64,000 bases of DNA. Source: Chiloscyllium plagiosum. Its lineage: Eukaryota. Below, piece after piece: positions 1,353-63,445 of the stretch (position 1 is its first letter; each line of letters starts with the position of its first letter). Location of the stretch: NCBI RefSeq assembly GCF_004010195.1, contig NC_057719.1:8054190-8118189 (forward strand), read 5' to 3'. Made by a program: the position numbers and the translations under genes. The notes beneath the pieces are model-generated. The model worked only from the letters and a program-made list of their open reading frames with translations, was not told the DNA's origin and did not search any database.

Positions 1353-1870
1353 TTTAAGTCTATAGGGTGAATTTGCATTTGCAGAATTGTATTTTCAGGT
1401 ACATTCTATTTTGCTCAAAAAGCACACAATCTACAGGCAGTTAATGCAGGCAGTCAATCCACGTGACATTTTATAAATTCCTATTTTGATAAATAGAACT
1501 AGTCTGACTCAAGATTGGAATATGGACAGACTCTAACCTCACAACTTTAACCCATTGTCTGAGCTGAGATGTCACCTTTTTTTGATAAAACCTTAAGTTA
1601 TCTCGGGAATGTGACTTGAAAGAAGTTCTGGGATTTACACATAATGAATCGATACCTGCAGCCCATTCTAAAAGATGAAAGACTTAACAGCAATCTAGGT
1701 GTGTTCAATAGATCATATCAGATACATGACACTATGATGTTTTGCTATAAATTCTGCGCCTTATGATCCTGCCCCACCAGTTACCCGATGAAGGAGCAGC
1801 GCTCCGAAAGCTAATGCTTCCATATAAACCTGTTGGACCACAACCTGGCGTTGTGTGATTTTTAACTTTC
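1353..1870 (+). mobile_element. 3' UTR and terminus of a second PLE family
   Basis: Ends in ccgatgaaggagcagcgctccgaaagctaatgcttcc...aacctggcgttgtgtgatttttaact, the same terminus as the fold-back units at 30689, 34667 and 43524. Confidence 0.7.
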
Positions 1871-3125
1871 TGATATCATATTATGCTTTATTGATTGCAT
1901 TAACTCTTTGATGCTGAACCATCTTTCAATCAGGACCTAACTTAACTAACCTTAACTTCTAACTTCCTGGATTCCACATTCTTCTAACTAGTAAGACACA
2001 CAGGCATTCACAGCTGTGGGACTGGCACATCCATTTATCATTAATGCATGCTACTCCTGTGCAGGCAGCCTGCCTGGGCCAGCAGAGTTCACCTGCCAAA
2101 ACTGTCTGAGCTGCCAATATGGCAAAACGATGGAGAAGTAGGAAAATAACTATCAAAGAATATTCAAGTCACTTTGGGTACGGGTGCCAACCTTCTGTTT
2201 AACATTACACTTAACTAAAGTACATCATCTTTCACTGTGGCCCTGTGATCTCTTTGATCTTGTGAATCTTCTGATGATTTGTTTTCCTTGTAGACTATTT
2301 GAAGGAAAATGTTCATGTTTATCATGTACAGCAGTGCAGAGTGCTGAGGCTCTTATTTATTGCTGTCCTCTGCACCTATGGAAAGTGGAAATTTAAGTGA
2401 GATGATTGGATTTTGGGATTCATTGGTATATTTAGCTCCTCTGTAACGTAATGGTAAATGAATGTCTTCTGTAAGTGTGTGTTTGAGCCAGAAATGCAAA
2501 ACTAGCATTTAATCCTGCACGATCTCCTATTGGCCAGAAAACTGAATACTTGCTGGTACAAAGGGAAGATACAAAGTGACTTTAAAATATTAAGTTGTAA
2601 ACCAACTGTTAAGGGCAGGAATACCTCTTGCCATAGTTCTGAATGTCCACATGTGTTGATGCTAGCTGGTGTCAAGTTCTCTTGTGCCTGTCTGCCTCTT
2701 CTCAATTCTGTCTTATCTGCTGAACGTCAGTGTTGGTTCCCTCAACATTCCTGTTACACTCCCTTTCTTCTTCAGGTGAGGAGACTGTCCAATTACTCCT
2801 TTTCTAAGTTCTCAACCTGTTATGGAGCTAGGTTAGGCAAGGTGTAGGATACAATCGCTCTTCTGGAGACCCTGACTGGTGAATAGAGAAGTGCATCTCA
2901 TTGTGGCTAGGCAACAGATGTGTTTCTTGAGAAAATCAACTGTCTGTTCAACGATAGTCCTTGTGGAAATGTAAGCAGCACTGAAGTGATGTTTGGCATC
3001 AGACTGTGGGTTGTGCACTGGGATACCCAGTGCTGCCTTAGTGTACCCATTAGCACACGCCATCTAGTCCTGGAGGTAATGTGATGGGAGGCTGAGGGGA
3101 AGACATTTGCAGAACCTGGGAGTTG

Positions 3126-3283
3126 AGGGGTAACAGTGGCGTAGTGATAATATCATTGGCCTACATTTGACTGTAGACCTTACTGCAATGTGGAAATTCT
3201 TAACTGCCCTCTGAGAAATGAGGGAGGGGCAATAAATGCAGGAATAGCCAGTGTTACCCACATCCTCTGAATAAATTGAAAAA
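3126..3283 (+). mobile_element. tRNA-derived SINE, internally deleted (same family as 12196 and 34370)
   Basis: gtggcgtagtgataatatcattgg head; gcaatgtgg..cttaactgccctctg..gggcaataaatgc..cccacatcc tail. Confidence 0.65.
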
Positions 3284-3483
3284 AATGAATGTGTGACAGA
3301 TGTGTATAAAGTGGGGGCATGCCTGCATGAATTGTTGCACTTGATCGCAAATGAGCTGGACACTGAGGGTGTGAAATCCCTTCCTGTTCAGGAATCTGGC
3401 TGGATGATGCCATGAACCTCTGAGCGCCATGTGTGCCCTTTGGACCTGAGGGAACCCATCAATGACTAAAAATCAAACAGTGT

Positions 3484-3808
3484 TTAGACTAGATTAGATT
3501 AGATTCCCTATAGTGTGGAAACAGGCCCTTTGGGCCAACAAGTCCATTCCGACCCTCCGAAGAGTAACCCACCCAGACCCATTTCCCTCTGACTAATGCA
3601 CCTAACACTATTGGCAATTTAGTGTGGCCAATTCACCTGACCTGCACATCTTTGGACTTTGGGAGGAAACCGGAGCACCCGGAGGAAATCCACACAGATA
3701 CGGGGAGGATGTGCAAACTCCACACACACAGTTGCCCGAGGCTGGAATCGAACCTGGGTCTCTGGTGCTGTGATGCAGCAGTGCTAACCACTGCGTCACC
3801 GTGCCACG
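3484..3808 (-). mobile_element. HE1-type V-SINE, full length
   Basis: tRNA-like head (ggcacggtg..cagtggttagcactgctgc..ggttcgattcc), V-domain core (gtggagtttgcacatcctccccg..ggtttcctcc), (tctaa)n tail. Confidence 0.9.
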
Positions 3809-3825
3809 CACATATTGTTAAAAAA

Positions 3826-3988
3826 AAGCAAAATACTGCAGAAATATGAAGCAAATATAAATGATGCTGGAGAAGCTCAGCAAGTCTGGCAGCATCTGTG
3901 GAGAGAGAAACAGACTTAAAGTTTCAAGTACAGTATGAGAGTGGCTGCTAGTCCTGTTGAGTTTTTCCAGCAATCTCTGTTTGATTCA
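3826..3988. mobile_element. Degenerate PLE-terminus fold-back unit
   Basis: gctggagaagctcagcaagtctggcagcatctgtgg...ctgttgagtttttccagc inverted arms. Confidence 0.6.
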
Positions 3989-5005: not shown

Positions 5006-5875
5006 TTGGCATCCAGCATGTGCCAACCTCTAAGAGCTGTCATGGCACATTTCCAATCCACTTCCAGGACACTTCCGCACTTCAGTGTTGCCCATCGGGC
5101 TGGACCAGGCTGCATCTTCAGGCTTTTTGCTCACTCTCATAGTACAACTCACTCTGAGTCTATCTGAATGCTCACAGCTTCCCTGCCTTGTCTTGTCTTT
5201 TTACACTTTCCCCCATCAGCCAGAGATGCCAGGCTCATTTCACTACTGTCTCTCTATGCCATTTAGTACAAAGCCTGAAAGGTTGTCATGGTGGACGGGA
5301 GGCATCAGGCACGTCAAGAGGGACAGCCTTCTCTCAGAGGATCCTGGCACAGTAAGTCAAGGACAGCGTCCAGGGCCTGTTTGGGGCAGTCACGGTCAGG
5401 ATCATAAAGGTCAAGGAGCCAAATGTCACACAGACTTTTTCTGCCCTATTGTGGGCTGTTTCCTCCTGGAATGGGAGAGAAGCAGGTATTATTGAAGATG
5501 AAAGTGGGCATTTTACTTTTGATGTAGGTTGAGAGGTGTCCGGAGTAAGTAAGTCAGCAGAACAGAGGGCTTGTGGTGGTGTCATGGTTTGGAGTGGGTG
5601 AAGGCGAATGGGGAAAATGTTGCAGGTAATTGTTCATACATTCTAGATTCCCTGTCTGAAACTGTGCAGGACAGCTCCAGAGCGATAGTGCTTTTCTGGG
5701 TGCATAATGCTCTTTCAAAGATGTCAGCTGCACTGGAGATCCTGGCCAAGTCCTGGATATCTGGTGAGAGATCAGTCATTCTGGAACTGGCATGTGGTAA
5801 GATTGGACGAAAGTCAGGTGTGATACTTTACATGAGGGCTCAAACAGGATTAATCTGGTGAGATTGTTAAAGTCC

Positions 5876-6720
5876 AGGTTAGGAGAGTGGGCAAAGAAGT
5901 GGCAGATGGAGTACAACGTGGGAAATGTGAGGTCATGCACTTTGGTAGGAAGAATAGAGGCATGGACTATTTTCTAAATGGGGAGAAAATTCAGAAGTCT
6001 GAAGTGCAAAGCAACATGTGAGTTCTAATCCAGGATTCTGTCAAGCTAAACTTGCAAGTTGAGCCAGTAGTTAGGAAGGCAAATGCAATGATAGCATTTA
6101 TTTTGAGAGGACTTGAATATAAAAGCAGAGGATGTATGGCTGAGGCTCTATAAGGTTCTGGTCAGACCTCATTTGGAATATTGTGCGCAATCTTGGGCCC
6201 CATATCTCAGGAAGTATGTACTGGCCCTGGAGGGGGTTCAGAGTAGGTTCACGAGAATGATTCCAGGAATGAAAAGCTTAACATATGAGGAGCGTTTGAG
6301 GACTCTGGGTTTATACTCGATGGGAGTTTAGAAGGATGAGGGGGAATCTAATGGCAACATACAGAATACTGAATGGCCTGGACAGAGTGGATGTTAGGAA
6401 GCTGTTTCCATTTGTAGGAGAGACTAGGACCCGAGACACAGCCTTTGAGTAAAGGGGAGACTTTTTAGAATGGAAATAAGGAGAAACTTCTTCAGCCACA
6501 GAGTGGTGAATCTATGGAATTCATTTCCACAGAAGGCTGTGGAGGCCAAGTCATTGCGTATATTTAAGACTGAGATAGATAGGTACTTGAGTATCACAGG
6601 GATCAAGGGTTACTGGGAGAAAACAGGAGAATGGGGTTGATAAACTTATCAGCCATGAATGAATGGCAGAGCAGATTCGATGGGTTGAATGGCCTAATTT
6701 CTGCTCCTATGTATTTTGGT
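5876..6720 (+). mobile_element. CR1 LINE, 3' fragment
   Basis: WAKKWQMEYNVGKC; LYKVLVRPHLEYCAQSWAPYLRK..LEGVQSRFTRMIPGM; CR1 3' UTR (gaatggcagagcagattcgatgggttgaatggcc). Confidence 0.9.
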
Positions 6721-7604: not shown

Positions 7605-8402
7605 TAGGTTAGGTTAGATTTTATTGTCATGTGTACTCAATACAGGAATACAGAAGTACTGTGAAAAGTGTACAAAGGTGCTCTTCTCTGGTGCTATCTT
7701 AGTATAAAAAAAGACAGGATTAAAGACAGAAGCAGAAAGAAAAGAAATAGCCAGAAGAAAAGGAAATGTCCAGAACACTCACCCACCTCCGCTGTGAGTC
7801 CTCACTGTCAGTAAATCAAAGTCCATCACTCAGTCTGCTAACACTCAGGTGCTATGAGACTTCGCTTGCTGCCACAGCCTGAATGCCAGAGTCACTGCCT
7901 CCGCCTTCAGGCACACAGGCCCAGCCTGTCCTTGAGCTGTTTTGCCAATCTTTGGTGCCATTTTGCCTCTACTGCCATGAGTTCACATTGGGCTCAAACC
8001 TGACACAGCGTCCACCACGTCAAAGCAGCTGGTGTCACATTTTGGCTGATATTGCTGCTGTTGCCTCCAGGGACTGTCATTTCAGCAAAGGAACCCGCTT
8101 CTACTGACAGCCTGGGAGACGGTCAGCTCCTACTGCTGCCGACACTCCGGGAAGGATACCGATGCTGCCACTGCCAATGCTTCAGGAAGGGGACTGATGC
8201 TGCCACTGCCAATGCTTCGGGAAGGGGACTGATGCTGCCACTGCCAATGCTTCGGGAAGGGGACTGATGCTCCTGTAAAAGGAAAGCAAGTAAAGAAGAG
8301 CAAAAGTTGAAAAAAGAGAGAGAGAAGAAAGAAAAGCAAACGGAATGGATGAGCACTGGGCTAAGGACCCGGGCCCAAACACTGCTACACTGCTGCCATC
8401 TT
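7605..8402 (-). mobile_element. Non-autonomous LINE-derived element with a Rex1-like tail and an internal 35-bp minisatellite
   Basis: Minus strand starts aagatggcagcagtg at 8402 and ends ttttcacagt..cacatgacaataaaatctaacctaacctaa, resembling the tail at 60640-60720. Confidence 0.4.
8161..8271 (+). repeat. 35-bp minisatellite, 3 copies plus a partial (degenerate copy at 8126-8160)
   Basis: gatgctgccactgccaatgcttc(a/g)ggaaggggact at 8161, 8196 and 8231, with no spacers. Confidence 0.95.
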
Positions 8403-9910: not shown

Positions 9911-9985
9911 TATTGATTTAATCTCAGTTTATGTGCACATCCTGGCTCATCTACAAACAGTTTCCCGCCCCTGCAACAGTATAAA

Positions 9986-10083
9986 CAGGATTCCTGATGA
10001 AGGGCTTTTGCCCGAAACGTCGATTTCGCTGCTCGTTGGATGCTGCCTGAAATGCTGTGCTCTTCCAGCACCATTGATCCAGA
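9986..10083 (+). mobile_element. 98-bp PLE-terminus insertion with an 11-bp TSD
   Basis: TSD aacagtataaa at 9975-9985 and 10084-10094; body matches the PLE terminus at 1090-1170. Confidence 0.85.
9991..10024 (+). ncRNA. Minimal type I hammerhead ribozyme motif (PLE variant), core intact
   Basis: ttc-CTGATGA-A-GGGC-tttt-GCCC-GAAA-C-GTC-gat; palindromic ACGT stem III; predicted cut after GTC (10021); stem I only ~2 bp. Confidence 0.7.
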
Positions 10084-10499
10084 AACAGTATAAATATCAC
10101 ACAAATGAGGTTCAGTAATTTGTTTTGACAAGTGCAGCAATTCCTTCCACAGTCCTTGGTTTTAACTTTTCTAATTTTCTATTTCTGTCTGTAAACAAAA
10201 ATAAAGTCAAATAAAATGTTATGCTCTTTAAAGCTTTCTAACTTGTGCATTAATGATGTTGCACTGGGGTTTAGTTACATGGTAACAAGTTATACAATAA
10301 TATGAAAGAAAAAAAGACTTGCATTTACATTGCACCTTTCATGACCTCATTGTCCCAATGCTGTTGTGTAATCTTGCTCTGTGCAAATTGGTTGCTACAT
10401 TAACTATCTTAGGAACAGTGGTTTCACTTGAAATGCACTTCATTTGCTGTAAATTGCTTTGGGACATTTTAGTAATATTTACTATACCCTCCTCAGATC

Positions 10500-11345
10500 C
10501 TGGAACAAAGATTTGAATATCATTTAAATGAAGAAAGACTGCAGAAAGCTGCAGTACAGTTGGATTTGAGGGTTTTGAGGAAGAGTCACTCAACCCGAAA
10601 CGTTAGCTCTGATTTCTCTTCACCAATGTGCCAGACCTGCTGAACGTTTTGTGCAATTTCTGTCTTTGTTTCTGATTTACACCATCTGCATTTCTTTCGG
10701 TTTTTATTTTGGATTTGAGAGTCCTTATGCATCAATCACACAAAGCAAGCATACAAATTCAGTGGATAATTGGAAAGATAAATTGAATGTTGGCCTTTAT
10801 TTCAAAAGGGATGAAGTATGAAACGGTGTTCGTCAGAACACACCTGAAATATTGATGATGATTTTAGTCTTCTTATCTAAGGAAAGATATGCTGACGTTG
10901 GAGGCAGTCCAGAGAAAGTTCACTAGATATCAGGTTCATAGGGATTTTCTTACAAGGAGTAGTAGGTTGAGGCTCTAATCATTGGAGTTTAGAAGAATGA
11001 GAGATGATCTTATTGAAATATAGGAGATTCTTAGGTGACTTGACCTGGTAGATGCAGAAAGATTGTTTTCCTGTATGGGATATATAAGGACCGGAGAGCA
11101 TGATTTCAGAGTAAGGGGTTGCACATTTAATAAAGTTTTGGGGAATTTCTTCTCTGAGGGTAGTGAACTCGTGGAATTCTTTGCCACTTAGGCAGTAGAG
11201 TTTGAGTCTTGATGTTTTTTGTAGGCTGAAACAGATTTCGCATCAGTATGTGAATCAAGGATTATGGGGATAAGGCAGGAACATGGAATTAATGATTATC
11301 AAATCAGCCATGATCATGATGACAGCACTCCTTTTGCTCCTATTT
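10500..11345 (+). mobile_element. Old CR1 3' fragment, interrupted by a PLE-terminus unit (10571-10708)
   Basis: Degenerate VRTHLKY...LEAVQRKFTR and CR1 3' UTR; the insert is flanked by TSD ttggatttgag (10560-10570 and 10709-10719). Confidence 0.75.
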
Positions 11346-11724: not shown

Positions 11725-12195
11725 CAAGATTCCCAAGATTTGTTCCTGAGATACTCTGCTGAAAAGCTCTTTCTAATCTGAGAGTTTCTCAGTTTCTTGT
11801 TTTTGAGCCAATATTCGGGTTAATTTCACTTGCTGTTTCAAAGCTCTTGATCTTTAGCCATTAATCACCAGTGTAAAGCCTTGGCAAAAGCTTTCTGAAA
11901 TATATATTACTCAGTATTGAAGGCCCATGCTGACCTATCAACTACAATGATGAGAGAAATGTAATTGCTATATATTTCAAAGAGCTTTTGCCAAGCTTTC
12001 ACTATGGTGATTAATGGCTAAGGAATAAGAATCTTGGAATAGCAAGTGAGGTTTGCAGCTGGTTAGAATATTAATTCTTGCTTTTAAGTTAGAGGGTGAC
12101 AGTAAATGGAAATTTTCAGGCTGGAAATAACATATGAACAAAGTCTTGGGATAATTTATTGGACCGCTGTTGTTTAATTTGTATTAACAAATTGG
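11725..12195. repeat. Two old CR1 RT fragments in inverted orientation forming a long palindrome
   Basis: 11826-11906 is the reverse complement of ~11970-12050; the right arm continues as degenerate F.KAF.K...LM.K...W...RVTVNG. Confidence 0.7.
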
Positions 12196-12559: not shown

Positions 12560-14362
12560 AATTCTTTAGCAAATAGGGTTAACTTTAGCAATTAGCGTTA
12601 AAGAGAATCCAAAGGAATTCTACAAATACGTTAAGGACACAAGGATAACTAGGAAGAGAATAGAACCCCTTCAGATCAGCACGGCCGCTTATGTGTAGAA
12701 CTGCAGGAGATGGGGGAGATACTGAACGAATATTTTCCATCAGTGTTTATTGTGCAGAAGGATATGGAAGATAGAGAATGTGGGAGAATAAATAGTGACA
12801 TGTTAGAAAATGTGCATATTACAGAGGAGGAGGTGGTAGTCATCTTAAAACACATAAAGTTAGATAAATCCCCAGGACCTGATCAGGTGTACCCTAGAAC
12901 TCTGTGGGAAATGAGGTAAGAGATTGCTGGGCCCCTTGCTGAGATATTTATAACATCGATAGCCACAGGTGAGGTGCTAGAAGATTGGAGGTTGGCTAAC
13001 ATTGTGCCACTATTTTATAAAGGTGGTAAGGAAAAGCCAGGGAACTATCGACCAGTGAGCCTGACGTCAGTGGTAGGCAAGTTGTTGGAGGGAATACTGA
13101 GGGACATGATTTACATGTATTTAGAAAGGCAAGGACTAATTAGGGATAGTCAACATGGCTTTGTGCATGGAAAATCGTGTCTCACAAACTTGATTGAGTT
13201 TTTTCAAGAAGTAACAAGGAGGATGATGAGGGCAGAGCGGTGGACGTGATCTATGTGGACTTCAGAAAGACGTTCGACAAGGTTCCTCATGGTAGACTCC
13301 TTAGCAAGATTGGATCACATGGAATAGAGGGAGACCTATCCATTTGGATACAGAACTGGCTCGGAGTAGAAGACAGAGGGTGGTGGTGGAGGGCTTTTCA
13401 GACTGGAGGCCTGTGACTAGTGGTGCGCCACAAGGATCGGTGCTGGGTCTACTGCTTTTCATCATATCTATAAATGATTTGGATGTGAACATAGCACATA
13501 TGGTTAGTAAGTTTGCATATGACACCAAAATTGGAGATATAGTGGACAGCGAAGAAGGTTACCTCAGAGTACAAAGGGATCTTGCGGAGTAGCAAATGGA
13601 GTCTAATTTAGATAAATATGAAGTGTTGTATTTTGGAAAGGCAAATCAGGGCAGGATTATACACTTAATGGTATGGTCCTGGGAGTGTTGCTGAACAAAG
13701 AGATCTTGGAGTGCAGATTCATAATTCCTTGGAAGCAGAGTCTCAGGTAGATAGGCGTTTAGTATGCTTGCCTTTATTGGTCAGAGTATTGAGTATAGGA
13801 GCTGGGAGGTCATGTTGCAGTTGTACAGGACGTTGATTAGGTAACTTTTGGGGTATTACATGAAGTTCTGATCTTCCTCCTATAGGAAGGATGAACGTGA
13901 AAAGTTCAGAAAAGATTTACAAAGGATGTTGTCAGGGTTGGAGGGTTTGAGCTATGGGGAGAGGCTGAATAGACTGGGCTATTTTCCATGGAGCATTAAA
14001 TGCTGAAGGGGGGTCCTTAAAGAGCTTTATAAAATTGTGAGGGGCATGGATAGGGTCAATAGGCAAGGCCTTTTCCCCATTGTGGGGAGTCCAAAACTAG
14101 AGGGAAAGAATTAAAAGGGACCCGAGGGGCAACCTTTTCACACAGAGGTTGGTGTGTATATGGAATAAGCTACCAGAGGATGTGGAGGAGGCTGGACGAT
14201 CAAAACGTTTAAAAATCATCAGAATGGGTATGAATAGGAAGGGTTTAGAGGGATATGGGACCAACGCTGGTAAATGGGACTAGATTAATTTGGAATATCT
14301 GTTCAGCATTGACAGGTTGGACGAAAGGGTCAGTTTTTCGTGCTGTATATCTCTATGACTCT
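12560..14362 (+). mobile_element. CR1 LINE ORF2 (RT) plus 3' end, 5'-truncated and frameshifted
   Basis: KSPGPDQVYPRTLWE; EDWRLANIVPLFYKGGKEKPGNYRPVSLTSVVGKLLE; SGAPQGSVLG...KFAYDTKIG; ctctatgactcta tail. Confidence 0.95.
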
Positions 14363-15604
14363 AATATAAGATCTGGAATTGAAACTATTCATAGTAATGG
14401 TGACCATGACTCCATCATCAACTATAGTAAAATCCCATCTGGTTCACTAACTTCCTTTAGGGAAAGAAATGTGCCTTCTGTGGCTGGTCTGGATGACCTT
14501 TGACTCCATCTAACAACAACAAGGGGGGACAGCAGTGGTGTAGTGGTAATGTCAGTGAATCCAGAACCCCTGGCTAATGTTCTGAGACATGACCTTGAAT
14601 TCCATCTTGGTAGATGGTCAAATTTGAATGGTCATTAAAAATCTGAAATAAAAGCCAGCCTAATAGTAGCTGTGTAACTACTGTTGATTGTTATAAATAC
14701 CCATCTGGTTTTGCCTTGAGGCAAAAAAGCCTGAGAAAGAGGAAGATTAGACCGCACCAGTGGAATAACATGGGGTGCTTTGCTACATAAACATGCTAGA
14801 GAAATGCAAGTTGTTGAGTAAGGGAAGAAATTAAGTGGAATTTGGATAAAGGACAAGTTCCTTTGGGACAAATGGCTTTTATTTCTTCTTAATGTTCTAA
14901 CCTTAAGTTAACTACCTCAAGATGATGTCTACAAGATCTGTTTCTGTAGACCTTGTCTTAAAAGTGATATGCCTATGGAAGATACTTACATTTCCTTTCA
15001 TTTTCTTGCTATCTTTTCTCTGTCCTCCCTTTCTTCCTGGGGAATTGCTCCTTATCAACCTTGCAAAGTCTAATTCAAATGTAGATTTACTTGCAGGAAG
15101 GTAACAGAAATGAAAATGAAAAATTCATCTCAGTTTCTTTATTCCAGAGAAATACGGCTTGATCCTATTAATAAATGTAAGACACTTTGATGGTTGAGGG
15201 TTTATCAGATACCTGATGAATGGACAATTTTTGTCCTAGTCTTTAACTCGATCCATGTAGATTCAATCTTAATGCAATGTCCTGGATAATCCATAAATTC
15301 ATAGCTCAATGATAGAATGTCAATGAACTTGCATATTGGTTTCCTTATTAATCTGTCAGTGTTCAAATGTTTTAAGTGCATACTTTGTGCTTCATTTCAA
15401 CTACAATGGCTATCAATATTCCTCTTTACTTTTCATTGACATTGCATTCAGTAGAATAATGCACTTTTTGATGTTACTGATATCATAACAGGCGAAAAGC
15501 AATTTTCCAAGGAATGTAAGGATCGTTCACAATAATCTCTGTCCCATGATAATAATTCTGTATTGGCTTGCTAGTAGCTTTCTATTTACATCCAACCAGG
15601 CCAT

Positions 15605-18637: not shown

Positions 18638-18768
18638 AGGACTGAAGAAGGGTTACACCTGTAACATTGGCTTTTCCACCTCCTGATGCTGACTGGCTTG
18701 CTGTGTTCTTCCAGCCTCCTGCTTATCTACCTTCGAATCCAGCATCTGCAGTTTGTTTTTGTCTCTGA
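18638..18768 (+). mobile_element. PLE-terminus unit with a degenerate hammerhead
   Basis: ctgaagaagggttacacctgtaac..ctgatgctgactggcttgctgtgttcttccagc..ccagcatctgcag. Confidence 0.6.
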
Positions 18769-26457: not shown

Positions 26458-26492
26458 GCTGACGTTTCAAATCAATAACCTTTCATCAGAAC
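26458..26492 (-). ncRNA. Hammerhead-like motif in a PLE-terminus unit (~26370-26495)
   Basis: Reverse complement gtt-CTGATGA-A-aggttattgattt-GAAA-C-GTC-agc; core intact, stem II weak (G-U rich). Confidence 0.45.
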
Positions 26493-30644: not shown

Positions 30645-30688
30645 GTGAGGACTGCCTGATACCCCATTGGCTGAACTCTGTGTTTTTA

Positions 30689-30860
30689 TGATTTGGAGAT
30701 GCCAGTGTTGGACTGGGATGTACAAATTTAAAAATCACACAACACCAGGTTACAGTCCAACAGGTTTAATTGGAAGCACTAGCTTTCGGAGCGCCGCTCC
30801 TTCATCAGGTGGTTGTCCAATTAAACCTGTTGGATTATAACCTGGTGTTGTGTGCTTTTT
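30689..30860. mobile_element. PLE-terminus fold-back unit with a 15-bp TSD
   Basis: TSD aactctgtgttttta at 30674-30688 and 30861-30875; arms cacacaacaccaggtta..tccaacaggtttaattgga / tccaattaaacctgttgga..taacctggtgttgtgtg. Confidence 0.85.
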
Positions 30861-31087
30861 AACTCTGTGTTTTTAGATCTAGAGTTGTGCATTTAGGAAC
30901 ACACATGTAATTGGAAGCAGTAGCTTTCGGAGCACCACTCCTTCATCAGGTGGTTGTCCACCAGATGAAGGAGCGGTGCTCCGAAAGCTAGTGCTTCCAA
31001 TTAAACCTGTTGGATTATAACCTGGTGTTGTGTGCTTTTTAACTCTGTGTTTTTAGATCTAGAGTTGTGCATTTAGGAACACACATG
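30767..31087 (+). repeat. Local tandem duplication (30767-30907 and 30908-31087)
   Basis: 30816-30907 is identical to 30996-31087; the first copy lacks 39 nt. Confidence 0.9.
30777..30811 (-). ncRNA. Minimal type I hammerhead ribozyme motif, fully paired
   Basis: Reverse complement CAC-CTGATGA-A-GGAGC-ggc-GCTCC-GAAA-G-CTA-GTG: stem I CAC/GTG, 5-bp stem II, palindromic AGCT stem III. Confidence 0.72.
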
Positions 31088-34369: not shown

Positions 34370-34882
34370 AGCAAAGAGGTATTATCACTAGACCGTTAAT
34401 CCAGGTAATGTCCTTGGTTTGAATCCTGCCATGGCAGATGAAGTTTGAACTAAATAAAAATTTGGAATTAGGAATCTAGTGATGACGATGAAATCATTGT
34501 GGATTGTCAGGAAAAACTCACCTTGTTCACTAGTGTCCTTTAGGAAAGGAAACTGCTGTCCTTACCTGGTCTGGTCTATATGTGACTTGAGATGTACAGC
34601 AATGTGGCTGACTCTTAACTGCCTTATGGCAATTAGGAATAAGCTATAAATGTTGTCTTAGCCAGTATTTGGAGACACCAGTGTTGGACTGGGGTATACA
34701 AAGTTAAAAGTTATAATCCAACAAGTTTATTGGAAGCACTAGCTTGCGAAGCATTGTTCCTTAAGGAGCAGTGTTCCGAGAGCTAGTGCTTCCACATAAA
34801 CGCATTGGACTATAACCTGGTGTTGCATGATTTTTAACGTCTTAGCCAGTGACATCCGCATCCATGAACGAATATTAAAAAA
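34370..34882 (+). mobile_element. tRNA-derived SINE split by a PLE fold-back
   Basis: Same family as 12196; the tail resumes at 34851 (gacatccgcatccatgaacgaat). Confidence 0.8.
34667..34838. mobile_element. PLE-terminus fold-back unit with a 12-bp TSD; both hammerhead cores lost at the apex
   Basis: TSD gtcttagccagt at 34655-34666 and 34839-34850; ggaagcactagct..cctt/aagg..agctagtgcttcc palindrome. Confidence 0.85.
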
Positions 34883-36330: not shown

Positions 36331-37597
36331 ACCGATTTTAAGGTATTCGGCAAAAGGAGCAACAGTCAACTGAGGGAATTCCTTATACACAGCATGTAGT
36401 TGGGGTCTGGAATGCTCTCGCTGAAGCTGGCTTAAATAAAGTTTTTAAAAGAGCATTAGGTAATTATCTGAAGCAAAGCTATTTGCAGAGCCAAGGTAAG
36501 AGTCAAGGGAGTGGGACGAGGAGTGTTCCTCTTCCACAGAATTGGCATGGATGCAATGGTTCAAATAGCTTCATGTTGTGCTGCAATCATTCTCTGACAC
36601 CTTGCAGGAACGTTGTTCCAATGTTGCTAAATTAAATGTAGTCAATTAAGATTGTGAATAGTCCATTACAGTACCCATGTTTTATGTTTGTTGTAGTTTA
36701 ATTGGGTTTTACCAGTACTGAACTCCTTCCAGTTCCTTGATTTGTGGTTATTCATGAGTAAGCCTGTATAATAACTGTTAGCAGTCTCTGTCATCCACCA
36801 TGGTAACACCCCTACCAATCAGAGTCCATCTAGCAACTAAACAATGCTTTGTTCTCATACAGAATAAAGACACATGTTTCTGAAGAAGACTCTCATATTG
36901 GACTCAAAATGTTAATTCTGTTTCTCTCTCTACTGATGCTACCAGACCTGCTGAATTTCAACAGCACTTTCTGTTTTTACTTCAGATATTCAGTGTTCAC
37001 AATATATTTTATTTCAGTATAAACATTGGTGGTCTTGCAAATCTCCTGATGAATGCAAAATAAAAAGCTTTGACAAAATGTACTTTTTTTCAGCCATCTG
37101 TGTTTAGTTGTGTGACAAATTTTAATGCAAAAAACAAAAAAAAACTTGTTTTGTAGGCATTCCGTGGAATTCACATCACTCAGAATAAAAACGATTGAAA
37201 CCCCTCTCTTTGCTCAGTGATCCACACCCTGAGCTACAAACCTTCTCCAAAATCTCAACAACCCTGTTTTATTTCATTGTCAGGAACACCAAATTAAACC
37301 TCCATTCTGTTTTCAATCAATATCTACTGTTCACGTCCACAATGCTCAGCAGTGGCCACAGCTAGCAAAAAAAAGGGTAGAAGTTCATTTCCCATTTAGC
37401 TGAGCAACCTGGGGACACTGGTAAGACCTCAACCTGGGTGTCTGCTAACTCAGCAGATTCTAAGGATCAAAGCTACATTCATGCTTATCTGTATGCTCGG
37501 TTCTACTTTGGAGCATCTTCATCAACCTTGGACTTCAAGAACAAAGTACTCATCTGACTACTCATGGATGATGATGGGATAGTGTAGGGGGATGAGC

Positions 37598-43523: not shown

Positions 43524-43696
43524 AATGTGGAGGTGCCAGTGTTGGACTGGGATGGATAAAGTCAGAAGTCACATGACACCAGGTATAGTCCAACAGATGT
43601 ATTTGAATCACAAGCTTTCGGAGTGTTGTTCCTTCATCAGGTGAAGTGATTTTAAATAAACCTGTTGAACTCTAACCTGGTGTTGTGTGCCTTCTG
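43524..43696. mobile_element. PLE-terminus fold-back unit with a 12-bp TSD and a hammerhead core (43609-43643, minus)
   Basis: TSD gctataatttgt at 43512-43523 and 43697-43708; reverse complement CAC-CTGATGA-A-GGA..TCC-GAAA-G-CTT-GTG. Confidence 0.8.
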
Positions 43697-45971: not shown

Positions 45972-47165
45972 AAAAGTGTGGTGCTGGAAAAGCACATCCA
46001 GTCAGGCAACATCCGAGGAGCAGGAGAATTGACGCTTTGAGCACACGCTCTTCATCAGGAATGTGGTGGAGGGGATGGCCAATGGGGCTGAGAAATAAAT
46101 GGAAGGGGTTGGGTCTGGGGTGAAGGTAGCTGGGGATGTGATAGGTAGATGAAGGTGGGGGGTGATGGCGATAGGTCAGAGCGGAGGGTGGAATGGATAG
46201 GTGGGAAATAAGGTGGACAGGTAGGGCAGTTCAAGAGGGCAGTGTCAAGTTGGAAGATTGGATCTGGGATAAGTTAGGGGGAGGGGAGATGAGGAAACTG
46301 GTGAAATCGACTTTGATCCCGTTGGTTGGAGGGTCCCAAGGCGGAAGACGAGGTATTCATCTTCCAAGCATCGGGTGGCTAGAATTTGGTGGTGGAGGAG
46401 GCCCAAGACTTACATGTCCTTGGTAGAGTGGGAGGGGGAGTTGAAGTATTCAGCCACAGGGTGGTGGGGTTGTTTAGTGCGTGTGACCCAGAGATGTTCT
46501 CTGAAACGTTCCACTTCCAGTCTCCCAATGTAGAGGAAACCACATTGGGAACAACAGATGGGTTTGGATGTACAGAAAATCTCTGTTGGATGGAGGTGAG
46601 GGGGGGAGGTGTGAGCGTAGGTTTTATCCCTCTTGCGGGAAGGTGCCATGAGTGGAGGGTGGGTTGGTGGGGTTGGGGGCTGGGTAGACCTAACATGAGA
46701 GTCACGGAGGGAATGGTCTCTGTGGAATACAGATAGAGGTGGGAGGGAAATATGTCTCTGGTGGTGGGGTCTCTTTGTAGGTGGCAGAAATGGCGCAGAA
46801 TGATGCGATGTATCCGGAGGTTGGTGGTGTGGAAGGTGAAGACAGGGGGGTTCTTCCCTTGTTGCGAATGAGGGGTATGGTTCAAGGGTAAAGGTGCAGG
46901 AAGTGGAAGAGATGAACTGGATAGCATTGTTAACCACATGGGAGAGGAAGTTGCAGTCCTTGAAGAAAGAGGCCATCTGGGATGTTCTGGAATGGAATTG
47001 GTCCTCCTAGGAGCAGATGCAGTGAAGGCAGAGGAATTGGGAGTAAGGGATGGTATATTTACAGTCAGGGAGGTGGGAAGCGGTGTAGCTGTCAGAGTTG
47101 GTGGATTTGAAGTATATATCTGTGTTGAGTCAGTTGCCGGAAATGGAGATGGAGAGGTCCAGGAA
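45972..47165 (-). mobile_element. Penelope-like element, 3' part (same family as 1-1213)
   Basis: MASFFKDCNF..; PVFTFHTTNLRIHRIILRHF; CSQCGFLYIG..ERFREHL; pLTR with a mutated hammerhead at ~46027-46062. Confidence 0.9.
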
Positions 47166-48740
47166 GTTGGACAGACAAAGGAGTCGATAACAATCTGACT
47201 AGGAGGGTGAGTAGCTGTTAATGGAGACTGTTAGTAGCTAACAGTAGATAGTGCGTAATGGGATGTGTGGAACTATGTGATCACAAGGCTTGCAATGTGG
47301 ATTAGGGAGCTAAGACATGGCCCGAAAATTATTAAAGTCGATATTGAGTCCAGAAGGCTGCGGGGTCCCCAAGCAGAAACTGAGGCATTGCTCTTCCAAC
47401 ATTGAGCTTCGCTGGAGCACTGCAACAAGCCTGAAACAGGATGTTGGCCAGGGAACGGGATGATGTGTTAAAGTGGCAGGCAACTGGAAGCTCAGGATCT
47501 TCTTTGCGGGCAGAACGTAGATGTCTTTGAAGTGGTCACTCAGTGTATGCTTCATTTTCCCAATTTAGAGGAGACCACATTGTGAGCAGTGAATGCAGTA
47601 GATTATATTGAGTGAAGTGCAGGTAAAGTGCTGTATAGTCCAGGTAGCTGTGGGAAGACTCCTGTCCAAAGAAATGGGCATAGAGGTGAAGATGGCGGAA
47701 GAAAGGTTTGATGTTATGTCATGCCCAAAATTCATTAAGGTGGGGGTGTAGAGGGATAAAGCTAAGACCTTTGCTGAATACAGAACGTTAAGCATTGGAG
47801 AGCGGAAGGTTGGGAGGGAAAGTGAATACCCGACAGGAGGTGGGGTTTGGGGAGGGGAGGGACGGAGCTTCCATCGGGCCATGGGTATTTCTGAGTTGTT
47901 GCATGTTGTGTGACTTGATGCCTGATGAAAAAAGAAAAGGTTTCTTGTTAGCACAGTGAATGAGCGGAGAATGAAGTGGAAATACAGAATGGTACAGCCC
48001 TTAGCCAATGTGATGCAATGCTGTTGGAGAGAGAGATCAAGAGTGTGCATGTGATGCCGCATGGTACTGAATGTGGATCTCAGGATGCAGTGAGAGCAGC
48101 TATCTGTGGAATGTTGAATATCATGGAAATACCTGCGATCCTGGGCAGATTCAAAGCACGAGGGATAAAAATTCATTTGGAATCCACGTGGAGTGAGTCT
48201 GAGCCGGAGGCAGACTCTGAGAAATATGATGTGGCTGTGGAAACGGGTTTGAACAAACACCTGGTTCAACACCAGGAGTGACAGTCAAATTAATGCCAGT
48301 GGACAAGAAATAAGATTGCAATGGAAATCCCGTCAGAGACAGGAGGAGAACCTCTTCATGTCGGGCATGCCTACAAGAGATGTGGCAATGAGTTAAATAA
48401 AAACCAAAAGAACTGCAGCTGCTGTAAATCAGAAACACAGCAGAAGTTGCTGGAAAAGCTCAGCAAGTCTGGCAGAATCTGTGAAGAGAAATCGGAATTA
48501 ATGTTTTGGGTCCCGTAACTGATGGTAGCTAGGAAATGTCGGTTTACGTGCAAAAGATAGGGCGGAGGAAAGGAGTAAGGAGTAAATGATAGGTGAGGAT
48601 AGAGCCCAAAGAGAGAGAAGAACAGTTGGACAGACAAAAGAGTAAATAATAATCTGGCTAAGAGGGTGTATACCTTTCAATGGCGACTGTCAGTGGCTCA
48701 CAGTAGTAGTGTGTAATGGCAGACTATGTGATAACAAGGC
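47166..48740 (-). mobile_element. Internally deleted PLE with a pseudo-LTR direct repeat
   Basis: N-terminal TRFHSHIIFLRVCLRLRLTPRGFQ fused to GIY-YIG FTCTSLNIIYCIHCSQCGLL with RT missing; 47166-47290 is repeated at 48626-48740. Confidence 0.8.
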
Positions 48741-56533: not shown

Positions 56534-56672
56534 ATCTAGATTAGAGTGGTGCTGGAAAAGCACGGCAGGTCAGGCAGCATCCGAGGAGCAGGAAAATCGA
56601 CGTTTCAGGCAAAAGCACTTCATCAGGAATAGAGGCAGGGTGCCTGCAGAGTGGAGAGATAAATGAGGTTTT
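56534..56672 (-). mobile_element. PLE-terminus insertion with a 15-bp TSD and a hammerhead core (stem II mutated)
   Basis: TSD taccagagcattata at 56519-56533 and 56673-56687; reverse complement CTGATGA-A-gtgc-tttt-gcct-GAAA-C-GTC. Confidence 0.85.
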
Positions 56673-57336: not shown

Positions 57337-57933
57337 GTGTGGTGCTGGAAGATCACAGCAGGTCAGGCAGCATCTGAGGAGCAGGAGATGATTATGCCCA
57401 AAGCGTCAATTCTCCTGCTGCTTGGATGCTACCTGACCTGCTGTGCTTTTCCAGCACCACACTTTTCGACTCTGATCTCCAGTATCTGCAGTCCTCACTT
57501 TCTCCTCGAAGATTTTAACCTACTGCGAATCCTCTTACAAGGATGCCTTCCTTGAAGAAGCTCTCTTCCTCCCTCTACATAAATTTGAGCTTATTCTAGA
57601 TGACACTCAGGGCTGAGCACACCCCAGGTCATCTCCTCTGCACAGAAGCTCAGTCAAATCCCTCGAACTCAGCACCGCTTTCCTAACCTGCAATCTTCTT
57701 CCTGACCTCTCTGCCCCCACCCCACTCCGGCCTATCACCCTCACCTTGACCTCCTTCCATCTATCGCATTTCCAACGCCCCTCCCCCAAGTCCCTCCTCC
57801 CTACCTTTTATCTTAGCCTGCTGGACACACTTTCCTCATTCCTGAAGAAGGGCTCATGCCCGAAACATCGATTCTCCTGTTCCTTGGATACTGCCTGACC
57901 TGCTGCGCTTTTCCAGCAACACATTTTCGGCTC
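57337..57933 (+). mobile_element. Rearranged PLE remnant: inverted terminus, 5' segment, 3' UTR and terminus
   Basis: Fold-back at 57337-57463; 3' terminus CTGAAGA-A-GGGC-tcat-GCCC-GAAA-C-ATC at 57842-57869. Confidence 0.8.
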
Positions 57934-58040
57934 TAAGCTCAAATTTATCCTAGTAGTATGAAGAATGATTCTAAGTGATAATTAAAAAAAAGTCCTTGAT
58001 TTCCTAAATTAATATTGGTTTATGTATTGTCCTTCAATAG

Positions 58041-58894: not shown

Positions 58895-60490
58895 AGTTAG
58901 ATGTGCAGAGGGGGTGGGATTGCCTTATTAGTAAGAAATAAAATTAAATCAGTAGTAAGAAACAAAGTAGGGTCAGATGGTTAGGATCTGTGTGGATCGA
59001 ATTGAGGAACCGCAAAGGGAGAAGATTAAATATGTGAGTAAGCTAGCCATTAATATAAAGGCAGACTGTAAGATTTTCTTTAGATATATAAAGGGCAAAA
59101 GTGAGGCAAAAGTGGACATTGGGCAGCTGGAAAATGACGCTGGAGATAGTAGTGGAGAACAAGGAAATGCCTGTGGAACTGAATAATTACTTTGTGTTCG
59201 TCTTCACAGTGGAAAACACGAGTAACATCCCAAAAATTCAAGAGTCAGGGGCTAGAGCTGAGTATGGTGGCCATCACCAAAGAGAAGGTACTAGAAATGC
59301 TCAATGGCCTGTTGGTGGATAAATCACATGGACGAGATGGACTACATCTCAGACTTCTAAGTGAGGGTCCCAGAGGACTGGAAAATCACTAACGTGACAC
59401 TCTGTTTATAAAAGGAGTACGGCAAAAGACAGAAAATTACTGACTGCTTAGCCTAACCTTGGTTATGAGTAAGATCCTGGCATCCATTGTGAAGGTTGAG
59501 ATTTCTGAACACTTGAAAGTGTATGGTAAAATAAGGTAAAATCAGCATGGTTTCATCAAGGAGCGGTTATGCCCAACAAATCCGCTTGAACTCTTTGAGG
59601 AAGTAACAAGCAGGTTAGACCAAGAAAAGCCAAGGAAAGCCAAGGAAAGGATGTTATCTACCTGGACTTCAAGAAGGCCTTTGACAAGGTGCCACACAGA
59701 AAGCTATTGGGTAAGGTAAGGGCCCATGATGTCAGAGGCAAGGTGCTAGGATGGATTGAAGTTTGGCTGTCTGGCAGAAAGGAGAGAGTGGGGATAAAAG
59801 GGCCCTCCTCAGAATGGCAGCTGGTGACAAGTGGTGTTCCGCAGGGCTCAGTTTAGGGGCCACAGCTTTTCACTTTATACATTAACGATCTAAATGGAGG
59901 AACTGAGGACAGTCTGGCTAAGTTTGCAAATCATATAAAGACAAGTTGAGGGACAGGTAGCATTGAGGAGGTGGGGAGGCTACAGAAGGATTTGGACAGG
60001 TTAAGAGAATGGGCAAGAAAGTGCCAGATGGAGTACATTGTGGGAAAGTGTGAGGTCATGCACTTTGGTAGGAAGAATAGAGGCACGGACTATTTTCTAG
60101 TTGGGGAGAATATTCAGAAGTTTGAAGTGCAAAGAGACTTGGGAGTTCCAGTTCAGGATTCCCTCAAGGTAAACTTGCAGGTTGAATCAGTAGTGAGGAA
60201 GGCAGATGCAATGATTGCATTTATTTTGAGAGGACTTGAATATAAAAGCAAGGATGTACTTCTGAAGCTCTATAAGGCTCTGGTCAGACCACATTTGGAG
60301 TATTGTCCACAGGTTTGGGCCCCATATCTCAGGAAGGATGTACTGGCCGTGGAGTGTGTTCAGAGGAAGTTCACAAGAATGGTCCCAGGAATGAAAAGCT
60401 TAACATGTGAGGAACATTTGAGGATGCTCGGTCTATACTGGATGGAGTTTAGAAGGATGAGGGGGGATCTTGCTGCTGGCATGGACTAGG
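58895..60490 (+). mobile_element. CR1 LINE ORF2 with internal deletions
   Basis: [73 protein letters not shown]. Confidence 0.93.
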
Positions 60491-60739: not shown

Positions 60740-61040
60740 TATATGACCACAAAGTGCAGGAGCAGAAGTAGCCATTCAGCCCATTGCTGCCTGATCTGCT
60801 GTGCTTTTCCAGCACTACACTCTCAACTCTGATCTCCAGCATCTGCAGACCTCACTTTCTCCCACTTCATTCAGCCCGTTGAGTCTGTTCCACCATTCAG
60901 TGAGACTATGGCTAATCTGATAGTCCTCAGCTTCGCTTTCCTGCCTTTTCCCTCAATACCCTTGATTGCTTTACTGATTAAAATGCTTTCTATCTCAGCC
61001 TTAAAACTGCTTAATGACCCAGCCTCAACAGCCCTCTGCA
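60740..61040 (-). mobile_element. CR1 3' end interrupted by a PLE-terminus piece (60783-60867)
   Basis: ggagcagaagtagccattcagccc; TSD cattcagccc at 60773-60782 and 60868-60877. Confidence 0.75.
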
Positions 61041-61170
61041 TTCTGAAGATGGGTCACTAGACTCGAAATGTTTACTCTGCGTTCTCTCTACAGATGCTAC
61101 CAGACCTGCTGAGTTTTTCCAGCAATTTTTATTTTTGTGTCCGAATTCCAGCATCAGCAATTATTTGTTT
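61041..61170 (+). mobile_element. PLE-terminus unit with a hammerhead-like core
   Basis: tt-CTGAAGA-t-GGGTC-acta-GACTC-GAAA-tgtt..cagatgctaccagacctgctgagtttttccagc. Confidence 0.65.
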
Positions 61171-61611
61171 CATGCTCATTCAGTTAACTCCTTAACCATT
61201 ACTTAATGTGTAAATCAATAGAAATATCTCTCTCCTTACATTTTAGGCACTTTACAAGTGAAAGCTTACTTTAATTTTCAAGAATGTTTTGAAAATTAAT
61301 AATCAGTCTGTATATTTTTCTGATGTTCATTGCATATTCAAACTCATCAGTTCCACTGGATGCTGGTACTGCAATCCAGTACATTTTTGACCATTTTTTA
61401 AATTTAATTTTTTTTTGCTGCGAATATAAAGAACTCAGAATGTCTCAAAGTATTTGACAGCCAATGACAAACTTCAAACAAACTATAGTTTTCACTACTT
61501 TAGCTTATTTATGTATTTAAAAAAACCACTGAATTAGAGGTGCTGCCTAGACCATGTTTTTTTTCAATTATTATGCTAAATGGTTTGGTTTTTGTGTGTG
61601 GTAAAACCCTT

Positions 61612-61833
61612 TAAGTAGTCTCCAGGTCACAAACAGGATTTGTTCCTGAGTATGACTGTAAATCAGTTTGTTTGCATGCCAAACACAATACAGTACAATA
61701 TAAAATATCAGTTTGTAAGTACAAACACACAGATCCCACATGTGGGATACTTAAAATTAATAGTATTGTGGGATCTTGCTTATGAGTACAAGCATGTGTA
61801 AGTCGAATGTTCATTAATTCGGGATTGCCTGTC
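61612..61833. mobile_element. Possible degraded Tigger/pogo-type MITE
   Basis: Left end gtagtctccaggtcacaaac and right end gttcattaattcgggattgcctg resemble cagg(t/c)agtcccc-type TIRs; heavily diverged. Confidence 0.3.
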
Positions 61834-63334
61834 CACTTTAACATTGCCTATTTAAATTTGAACAGAGAAGAAAAGGAGGCAAAATAACATTGCAATTGGA
61901 AAGAAAGTGCATTGTGGATGCCTTTCAGGAGCTAAGGGAATAGAACCCTGAAATAAAATATTGTGTCTGTTGGAGCTTACAGCTGAAATCTTGTTAAAGC
62001 AATAAAATACCTAACTAAAATAGAATTTGAACTAGATGTTTAAAAATGAAGATTAAAGTGCAGTACAATATGGTGAGCCATGTACCTTTGTCACTCTGTT
62101 TCCCTTCTCCCCGCCTTCTAGGCACTTTGCCCCACCACTCCACTTCTGCATTCTGTCTTACATCCCTTCTCACTCTTCCTCTATTCAAACCCAAACATTC
62201 AATTGAACTTTAATGCACTGTTACTGGACTCTGATCCAATTCCATTAAGTAATGGGGCTCTCAGGTGATTGAAATTCCTGCAGATAATTTAGTTTTTAAG
62301 TGGAAAAAATACACTGGTTTATTCTGTTGTGGTTCTGTTCGCCGAGCTACAAATCTTCTCACAAACTTTGAACTGGTTTATTCTACAAATCAGTGAGAAA
62401 AATATAGAGCCTGCTGCAATGTGGCAGTATTTTATAATAGACCATGTCCAGAAATATATTTTCAAGAATTCCACACTTGTGCTAATTCAGCAGTTTAACT
62501 ATATTAAAGATAACTGTGATAAACTGTGAAATGCTGATTTCGTTCCCAGAAATTTACAACCCAGGATAAATTGAGGAGAAAAGTACAATGGAATGCTGAA
62601 AATCCGTAAATGGAAATACCATGTAAGAATATAGTAGATAGGGGCAGAAATACGCTATTTGACTCTTCAAACTTACTTTGCTTTCAAACAGATTGTAATC
62701 AATTGTCTACCTCTGCACCCATTTTCCCCGCTACCACCAAATGTCTTTATTATCGGCAAAATCTATCAATTTCTATCTTGAACATGCTCAGTGATTAAGC
62801 TTCCACAGCCCTCAGAGGTGTTAGCATGGATAGAAAATCAGCTGACACAAATCAGAGAGCATGCCAAAATGGGTCTTTGTTTGATTGGCAGGTTTTGACG
62901 AGTGGAGTCCTGCAGGGATCTCTGCTTGGACCTCAAACTTAAATGAACGGGAAGCGTGAAATGAAGGCTGCGATAATTCCAGAGGCTCATAGTCTGGTGT
63001 CTCATGAGAGATAGAGAAAGATGGCTAATGATGGGTTTAACTTGAGGATCACCACACCTCAGTCAAGGGGCAAGGTAGAGAAATAGTGTATGAGAATTGA
63101 TCCTGCGCTATTGGTATCACTCTGCATTGAAGAATCACACAGCTGTCCAGCCAGCTGAGCTAACTGACCCCTTGAAAGAGTGAACTGAGGGGAATGAAGG
63201 CTAGGTACTTAAATTTTCAGATTACATGAAATTGGATAGAAATGTATCTTGTAAAAAGGACATAAGGAGGTTGCAGGTGGGTAGGGAGAGTTTGATTAAT
63301 TGGGTAGAAACCTGGCAAATATAATATTGTTATG

Positions 63335-63445
63335 AAGAAAAACAGAAGCTATTGGAAAAGCTCAGCAGGTCTGGCAGCATCTGCGCACTGTGCAGAGAAA
63401 TCAGAGTTAACATTTCATGTCCAGTGACCCTTCCTCAGAACAGCA
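63335..63445 (-). mobile_element. PLE-terminus unit with a hammerhead-like core
   Basis: Reverse complement GTT-CTGAGGA-A-gggtc-actg-gacat-GAAA-tgtt-AAC. Confidence 0.65.

Follow-up and report, generated by a model that had tools for sequence, protein, structure and literature searches.

Hammerhead motifs in the window

The 64,000-nt stretch of Chiloscyllium plagiosum contig NC_057719.1 analysed here (positions 8,054,190 to 8,118,189; the window) contains short motifs that very probably are minimal type I hammerhead ribozymes in the pseudo-long terminal repeats (pLTRs) of several Penelope-like element (PLE) families, a confidence that covers the whole explanation developed below. A first-pass annotation had listed 13 sites with the hammerhead skeleton, and re-inspection of the window sequence confirmed all of them. 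Its numbers for minus-strand sites mark the low end of the motif and not C3, the first C of CUGANGA, which is position 0 for all core-relative coordinates used here. The C3 positions are 1785(+), 9994(+), 10575(+), 26489(-), 30808(-), 30949(-), 30962(+), 43640(-), 46058(-), 56626(-), 57842(+), 61043(+) and 63438(-). Core and stem III palindrome are both intact at six sites (9994, 26489, 30808, 30949, 43640 and 56626), an intact core is combined with a broken palindrome at three (57842, 61043 and 63438), and the core is broken at four (1785, 10575, 30962 and 46058). Several copies were said to be mutated, and seven of the 13 indeed lack an intact core or a palindrome; the CUGANGA, GAAA and UH boxes are complete at nine. 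The exact core together with stem II was found nine times in the window, against a mean of 0.35 and a maximum of 1 in 20 block-wise dinucleotide shuffles.

Self-comparison of the window copies gave three main families. Family A has stem II GGAGC/GCTCC and palindrome AGCT, family B has GGGC/GCCC and ACGT, and family C has GGGTC/GACCC and ACGT. The stem I types given earlier did not include that of family B, ATTC/GATT, which contains a U.U mismatch; in one family B subfamily stem I is ATTC/GAAT. The extra base after CUGANGA, described as usually A, is U at 61043 and A at the other 12 of 13 sites. Further pLTR segments occur in the window, about 40 in all (47 BLAST segments, a few of them spurious), and two decayed motifs beyond the 13, at 18642(+) and 36880(+). 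With a covariance model trained on 14 non-A sequences, nine sites of the original list, from B, C and C-like copies, were recovered at E ≤ 0.006 (one of them in the model) together with the two decayed motifs; the model did not match the family A sites in the window. A search of Rfam, proposed earlier as a check, returned no hammerhead family among 15 window matches at E ≤ 10, the matches being only hairpin-driven microRNA and small nucleolar RNA hits, all under their gathering scores.

The best intact family A hammerhead (30777-30811, predicted cut after 30780) lies in a short copy at 30685..30816(-) that runs from -8 to +123; its sequence holds an ATTAAA polyadenylation signal at 30765..30770(-), 9 nt behind the predicted cut, at the position used in the family A reads described below. 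Next to it is a head-to-head family A pair at 30908..31048, with an intact core at 30918-30952(-) and a broken one (U4A) at 30959-30993(+). Both are part of a composite inverted family A insertion (30685-31087), in which 92 nt recur exactly in direct orientation (30816-30907 and 30996-31087) and three of the junctions are inverted; this arrangement suggests repeated template switching. For 30685-31090, no RNA data set containing the stretch was listed. The other family A features are a pLTR at 1664..1869(+), with TATAAA at about 1746 and a hammerhead at 1782-1816 whose core is broken (U4C), a second head-to-head pair at 34667..34838, both members without the 5' core, and an older copy at 43525..43689(-), with core and palindrome intact in its hammerhead (43609-43643) and an inverted arm at 43645-43689.

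Family B is represented at the left edge of the window by a broken open reading frame (ORF) remnant at 3..849(+), comprising the C-terminal part of a reverse transcriptase (RT), a Cys-rich linker and a GIY-YIG domain, recognized by translation and by tblastn with RT+GIY-YIG relatives (87% to P0001). The family B 3' region and pLTR follow at 850..1199(+), with most of the hammerhead deleted, and then the tail. A short family B copy at 9990..10084(+) begins at an Inr-like A, carries an intact hammerhead (9991-10024, predicted cut after 10021) and is flanked in the sequence by an 11-nt direct repeat (about 9975-9985, and 10084-10094). Between this target duplication and the element start there is a short fold-back (CAGG before ATTCCTG, 9986-9996). 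A 5'-truncated PLE at 45982..47225(-) consists of an RT C-terminal part and GIY-YIG (46317-47225), a pLTR and a broken hammerhead (46028-46061). Another family B copy, at 56550..56664(-), has core and palindrome intact and three of four stem II pairs in its hammerhead (56596-56629), and a long pLTR at 57649..57940(+) has a hammerhead at 57839-57872 with a broken palindrome.

Family C is present as a PLE relic at 47230..48668(-), with a 5' pLTR (48396-48668, core deleted), an N-terminal ORF, an internal deletion and GIY-YIG; its 3' region is interrupted by a family B copy. Short family C copies lie at 10572..10708(+), with tail and a broken core (C3U), at 61040..61155(+), with a broken palindrome, and at 63339..63441(-), whose hammerhead (63406-63441) also has a broken palindrome. 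A C-like copy that we call F, at 26458..26492(-), has intact core and palindrome and a weak stem II of A-U and G-U pairs. A decayed C-like copy with a longer stem II is at 36877..36993(+), and a decayed hammerhead of a further family, G, is at 18639..18671(+) (covariance model E 6.6e-5).

Stem covariation and architecture

The stems were claimed to covary across families, and compensatory changes were found in stems I and II when permutation and slid controls were run. Variation inside a family proved to be mutational decay. In 18 sequences anchored on the core boxes only, stem I pairs 1-3 are paired in 16, 17 and 16 and stem II pairs 1-4 in 18, 18, 18 and 16, with CG, UA, AU and GC exchanged. 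With eight representatives, one per family or subfamily, 53 of 56 cells are paired against a permutation mean of 32.4; only 4 of 40,320 permutations reached as high, and slid controls gave 26 and 23. A count on 14 sequences, which leaves out A and F (MAFFT placed both one column off), gave 94.8% paired against 24-44% for slid alignments, with two-sided changes in seven of ten pairs. Kinship among the sequences can inflate the shuffle controls. Stem I is the cleanest test, because most representatives were chosen by a filter requiring stem II and the palindrome.

Across the family representatives, the type I architecture in its minimal form, with one extra nucleotide and a palindromic stem III, was borne out. 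They retain the core boxes, and the catalytic core bases are invariant while the stems differ between families. The extra nucleotide between 9 and 10.1 is present in 18/18 sequences, and the first stem II pair is GC in 14, GU in three and AU in one. The palindrome is ACGT, AGCT or ATAT in all 18, but 15 of these were selected by filters requiring a palindrome. In folding, stem II had a probability of at least 0.92 in A, B and C copies.

Origin in Penelope-like elements

The PLE origin first proposed for the motifs holds for families A, B and C, which lie behind GIY-YIG remnants and end in the two-site tail of PLEs. The window remnants at 3-849(+) and 46317-47225(-) combine RT with GIY-YIG at the C terminus in one ORF, as in endonuclease-bearing (EN+) PLEs, and each is followed by a family B pLTR. 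At the genomic locus L042 the Pfam domain GIY-YIG (PF01541) scored above cut-off. Most of 52 relatives have RT-family domains and some have GIY-YIG; the closest named proteins to the family B ORF are labelled Chiloscyllium punctatum (86-88%). The RT-EN linker of family B contains Cys-x4-Cys-x2-Cys (L042), and a Zn-finger motif in this linker is a mark of Neptune/Nematis (bioRxiv 2021.04.23.441226). Family B shares that mark; the linkers of A and C were not recovered.

A profile of 43 endonuclease domains matched upstream of the motif, in sense, for 6/100 A motifs, 21/140 B motifs (a set enriched by 30 loci that had been fetched with the B protein) and 2/48 C motifs, and in the rarer families for 3/5 D, 3/7 E and 1/4 G motifs. 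Some of these matches belong to neighbouring elements; the one upstream of L153 is part of a family B copy, and we therefore no longer counted it in favour of family A. Contiguity from the endonuclease end to the motif is common to four family A loci (L003, L169, L219 and L233). The PLE traits of 5' truncation, inverted 5' arms and an optional 30-40-nt tail were all seen among the copies. No intact full-length PLE was recovered, and long open frames considered as candidates were rejected as assembly gaps. Pfam matches to RT or endonuclease among 20 window frames fell only in long interspersed nuclear element (LINE) fragments, with none on the PLE remnants, and a search of the PDB with the RT C-terminal piece gave no match. 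Families D and E (L059:457-660, L207, L234, L062, L100, L266), which were not found in the window, have a 6-bp stem II, an extra base that is usually U and a clear TATAAA 45-55 nt upstream.

Genome-wide load and relation to published hammerheads

In the 3.56-Gb genome, the strict-core pattern CTGANGANGN{9,16}CGAAASSTH had 82,891 and 82,883 matches on the two strands (165,774), against 74 and 92 (166) for the reversed pattern as control. A sample of 130 evenly spaced 10-kb stretches (1,248,380 non-N bases) contained 60 matches, which extrapolates to about 171,000. BLAST with long reference copies found 399 copies in these stretches, 87 A, 215 B and 97 C, where B and C have a common tail and cross-assignment is possible; by extrapolation from 399 copies in 1.25 Mb the genome has about 1.1 million pLTR pieces. 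The motif density of the window resembles that of the genome.

The hammerhead class is already published (PMC4209133), and the motif itself is not new. As far as that paper could be consulted, its PLE hammerheads are likewise type I, with an extra base between 9 and 10.1, G10.1-C11.1 and a palindromic 15.2-16.2; there too, several covarying consensus families occur per genome, and most motifs are solo and come from truncated PLEs, with some close opposite-strand pairs. Differences are the copy number (about 166,000 by the strict core here versus about 4,000 in coelacanth and about 9,000 in Xenopus, with different descriptors) and the length of stem II (4-6 bp here versus 7-8 bp). The portion consulted names no shark and contains no mapping of starts, of poly(A) or of U6. 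Small PLE hammerheads with a very short palindromic stem III cleave as dimers (Lunse, Weinberg, Breaker 2016/17, as cited in PMC6765202), and the window motifs share with these the palindromic, extremely short stem III and the dimer model.

Where the copies start and end

Among the 399 copies, 148 have their 5' end at -13..0 (37/87 A, 78/215 B and 33/97 C). The density of 5' ends is 2.4-5.6 per nt in this interval versus 0.04-0.14 per nt upstream, and 18 copies (2 A, 12 B, 4 C) end within 2 nt of the predicted cut. Upstream of the core, long family A copies show TATAAA at -40, those of family B TTTATCT at about -36 and those of family C TATA-like runs at about -31; directly before the core stand Inr-like sequences, TCATTCC (A), CTATTCC (B) and TCAGTTC (C). 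At A(-4) of family B, a depth step and loose ends were found in independent RNA and DNA runs; run X21 gave no reads on the copy. A putative TATA/Inr pair is described in a rotifer PLE pLTR (PMC3846280) and a TATA-less internal promoter in Drosophila Penelope (PMC2377424). The 5' pile-up probably marks the transcription start. At the presumed start, 18 of 33 copies have G as their first mismatching base, versus 52 of 205 elsewhere (p=0.0016), and among the first 100 matches listed in each of three lists, the ratio of G to A before the presumed start was 60:12, 64:36 and 48:31, counted by eye. The chance that this junction G derives from a cap is a little short of even. A splice-acceptor reading of the pile-up was rejected, since AG is present there in family C only.

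The 3' ends are bimodal in all three families, at +82-89 and +119-125 in A, +81-95 and +120-128 in B, and +90-105 and +129-135 in C. These clusters match the tail of PLEs, which is bounded by two internal RT starts according to PMC11167929. The anole Poseidon PLE of that work, PAc (Frangieh et al. 2024), also resembles the families studied here in that the tail between the RT starts is 30-40 nt long, uncut RNA is the main template and, as is probable here, the hammerhead needs protein to cut. Differences are that the ORF of PAc starts at stem II whereas here the AUG in the core is stopped after 8 (A) or 17 (B) codons, that the RT-EN linker of family B is Cys-rich, like that of Neptune/Nematis, and that in vivo cut ends were not found for PAc. 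The tails of B and C end in pyrimidine-rich, splice-acceptor-like runs (e.g., window 36310-36330 and 57490-57505); the hammerhead motif may belong to a 5' exon or an intron.

Polyadenylation behind the family A motif

Use of a polyadenylation site was mapped on the family A copy L005 (C3 = 1504) with 3,254 reads from about 2% of RNA run X20, one single-cell, oligo-dT-primed sample. An A-run was present in 1,404 of these, with 591, 112 and 701 reads behind 1559, 1561 and 1562 (+55..+58), which places the family A poly(A) site about 30 nt behind the predicted cut. In the same orientation, depth is 1,941 before the site and 354 after it, and across the predicted cut it is 1,846 then 1,941, with no step (30-nt products may be lost from such libraries). 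L005 has ATTAAA at 1542-1547 followed by a GT/T-rich stretch, without a genomic A-tract. The AATAAA form was found in 761 of 1,891 reads, so more than one locus contributes poly(A) reads. A canonical hexamer is present in 138 of 170 genomic family A copies, and an end at +62 or earlier was found in just 2 of the 87 genomic A copies. In contig runs X15 and X19, insertion ends at 1585-1590 are among the listed loose ends, and the poly(A) site is not. The poly(A) reads may be host transcripts that end in stubs or in long pLTRs.

The order TATA, presumed start, AATAAA/ATTAAA and GT-rich stretch in family A is like that of the U3-R-U5 LTRs of retroviruses and Metaviridae, as described in PMC3601003. 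Unlike those LTRs, family A has a hammerhead in the R-like part, and the order is not seen in most B and C copies. An integrase, a primer-binding site and TG...CA ends are not expected, and no search for them was made.

Junctions with U6

The motifs had been called self-cleaving. For the families this is supported, indirectly, by junctions of U6 RNA at the cut bond; for the 13 window copies it is not, since seven have lost core or palindrome and uncut RNA was the source of most copies in the genome. Matches to a U6 3'-end motif numbered 35, versus 7 in the control. After five T, the U6 sequence continues at N1.1 into family B at four places and into family A at one. A sixth junction, in which family D is joined at N1.1, was seen in the inverted arm; the direct arm carries four unlike letters. 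None of the 35 matches has U6 joined at the presumed start. Three of seven fetched stretches reached the Rfam U6 threshold, and three others hold only the U6 3' part; L327, which has neither an Rfam U6 copy nor a clear PLE junction, was dropped. The fixed junction position in three families is an argument for cutting. Hammerhead cleavage leaves a 5'-OH end. According to Moldovan et al. 2019 (PMC6789731), RtcB joins the U6 cyclic phosphate to a 5'-OH. The U6/LINE-1 chimeras of that study are similar in that U6 ending in five U is joined to a retrotransposon RNA and retrotransposed, and differ in that here U6 has a PLE as partner and its junction always lies at the ribozyme bond instead of varying.

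The inverted 5' arm of the U6-PLE chimera contains the U6-PLE junction as well in L326 (G000:C1:10705150-10705550) and L323; copying of the chimeric RNA therefore followed the route that is usual for PLEs. L324 has two tandem U6 copies before a family B cut product. Among family B copies truncated in +24..+33, +28 is the mode (22 of 100, by eye; 12 without microhomology, 10 explained by it), with 4 each at +26, +27 and +29, 11 at +24 and 9 at +25. This mode is a modest footprint of cutting. A corresponding count for family A was abandoned, confounded by a GTGTG subfamily and by mutated intact copies. Judged from the U6 junctions, the family ribozymes likely do cut in living cells, though rarely.

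Interpretation

Most copies are likely short, decayed insertions reverse-transcribed from the uncut front end of the element RNA. The transcription start would lie 4-8 nt ahead of the core and about 30 nt downstream of the TATA or TATA-like box, and the PLE protein would prime at two internal RT start sites, one at about +85-95 and one at about +120-135, as it does in vitro for the anole PLE; RNA starting in the pLTR would then yield stubs of 90-140 nt because of these two RT starts. In family A, polyadenylation at +55..+58 would end the RNA before the RT start sites, favouring stubs over long copies. Two motifs would pair through the 4-nt palindrome, probably with help from protein, so that a minority of RNAs is cut, and the 5'-OH ends left by cutting could be joined by an RtcB-type ligase. 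A further proposal, which we regard as tentative and more doubtful than not, is that the family A pLTR resembles a true LTR with a hammerhead in R. A full transcript, from 5' start to 3' poly(A), would carry exactly two motifs, and their pairing through the palindrome would cut off cap and tail to leave a unit-length RNA (5'-OH, cyclic phosphate) for RtcB closure or U6 joining. Uncut cap-proximal RNA would seed about a million stubs, and A stubs would donate poly(A) sites to host transcripts genome-wide.

Several results weigh against the explanation as a whole. The 5' peak is about 14 nt wide, and the RNA runs have no pile-up of RNA starts at the presumed start or the predicted cut. In 58 unselected, non-inverted short copies, G is at -1 in only 9 (p=0.72) and the native C in 35, and the junction G lies inside the target duplication in 10 of the 11 cases where a duplication was found. 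The organism sampled in X20 (organism B) may not be the window's species. A canonical poly(A) signal is present in only 10 of 143 family B copies (a subfamily with AATAAA at +76; 73 reads have a T-run) and no conserved signal was found in 48 family C copies, so the step of polyadenylation before the RT start is not general. Folded as monomers, copies 9994 and 30808 have a stem I probability of only 0.03-0.14, the duplex formed by the palindrome has an energy of -1.7 to -2.5 kcal/mol, and for no copy folded was the predicted minimum the active dimer, which fits the low in vitro activity reported in PMC4209133. Finally, about 10 of the 35 U6 matches lead into SINE-like starts (SINE, short interspersed nuclear element) with short variable linkers, so U6 junctions can arise without a ribozyme.

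The breadth of the 5' peak, together with the many copies that end inside the core (0.9-1.9 per nt), the inverted arms at the pile-up point in many copies and a junction G that is usually target-encoded, would also fit a pile-up that is a break point rather than an RNA start, caused by RT stalling or fold-back after the hammerhead or by second-strand joining at microhomology. We consider this rather unlikely, because TATA or TATA-like and Inr-like motifs stand at fitting distance in A, B and C, G is in excess as first mismatch at the presumed start and exceeds A in all three lists, and a stall would be expected before a structure, not after it. Less probable again is that the fold serves the PLE protein as a binding or structural element and does not cut in vivo, the U6 junctions then being products of a template switch where the RT stalls. 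The predicted cut site is indeed spanned unbroken by the majority of copies and of poly(A) reads; moreover, hammerhead mutants had no effect on in vitro insertion and no reads ended at the site (PMC11167929), and motif-free PLE clades proliferate. Against such a role stand the core bases conserved across families with differing stems, the placement of all six U6-PLE junctions, from three families, at the scissile bond with none at the far commoner start site, and the +28 truncation mode of family B.

That the short copies are autonomous-like retrozymes or SINEs amplifying through circular RNA seems improbable. Non-LTR retrozymes, described as PLE derivatives, have been reported from one chondrichthyan, and family A units form one direct tandem, 355 nt apart (L021/L022). 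The copies, however, are mostly solo or head-to-head and collinear with the pLTRs of coding elements, and the short ones have their 3' ends at the tail sites of PLEs and are without the upstream TATA of long copies; the direct tandem repeats with a hammerhead per unit that characterize non-LTR retrozymes are missing from the window, where each copy stands alone or in a head-to-head pair. Chance matches, or regulatory RNAs kept at this locus by host selection, could account for the lack of an Rfam hammerhead match, but are refuted as a general explanation by the 165,774 matches versus 166 in the control, the genome-like density of the window and the seven broken copies among 13, and we give them next to no weight.

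Taken as minimal hammerheads of PLE pLTRs, the motifs form a very large fossil record of PLE templates, which fixes where these start and end. In family A the record locates, 30 nt behind the cut, a poly(A) site that is in use, and it preserves U6 junctions at the scissile bond; exact coordinates for the start, the 3' end and the cut ends of pLTR RNAs result from it. The role of the hammerhead in endonuclease-bearing PLEs is called unclear in the literature as far as seen. The first-pass annotation made a correct catch of a known class. The family A poly(A) site behind the hammerhead is absent from the literature searched. These shark families, poly(A) use in pLTRs and U6-PLE chimeras were not found described there; Lunse 2016/17, Arkhipova 2017 and the supplements of PMC4209133 lie outside that search and may cover shark motifs.

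Other features of the window

Degraded LINE fragments lie at 13056-18504, 27038-27999, 5875-6349 and 59997-60470, and RVT_1 and endonuclease Pfam matches in three frames at 12920-17781 belong to such fragments. Repeat copies at 3490-3804, 32602-32717 and 35233-35534 are presumably SINE-like. A 123-nt inverted duplication with 93% identity has its arms about 1 kb apart (37598-37720 and 38663-38778), and a short tandem repeat with units of about 35 nt occupies 8136-8271. At 11826-12049 there is a 224-nt imperfect palindrome, unrelated to the hammerhead families.

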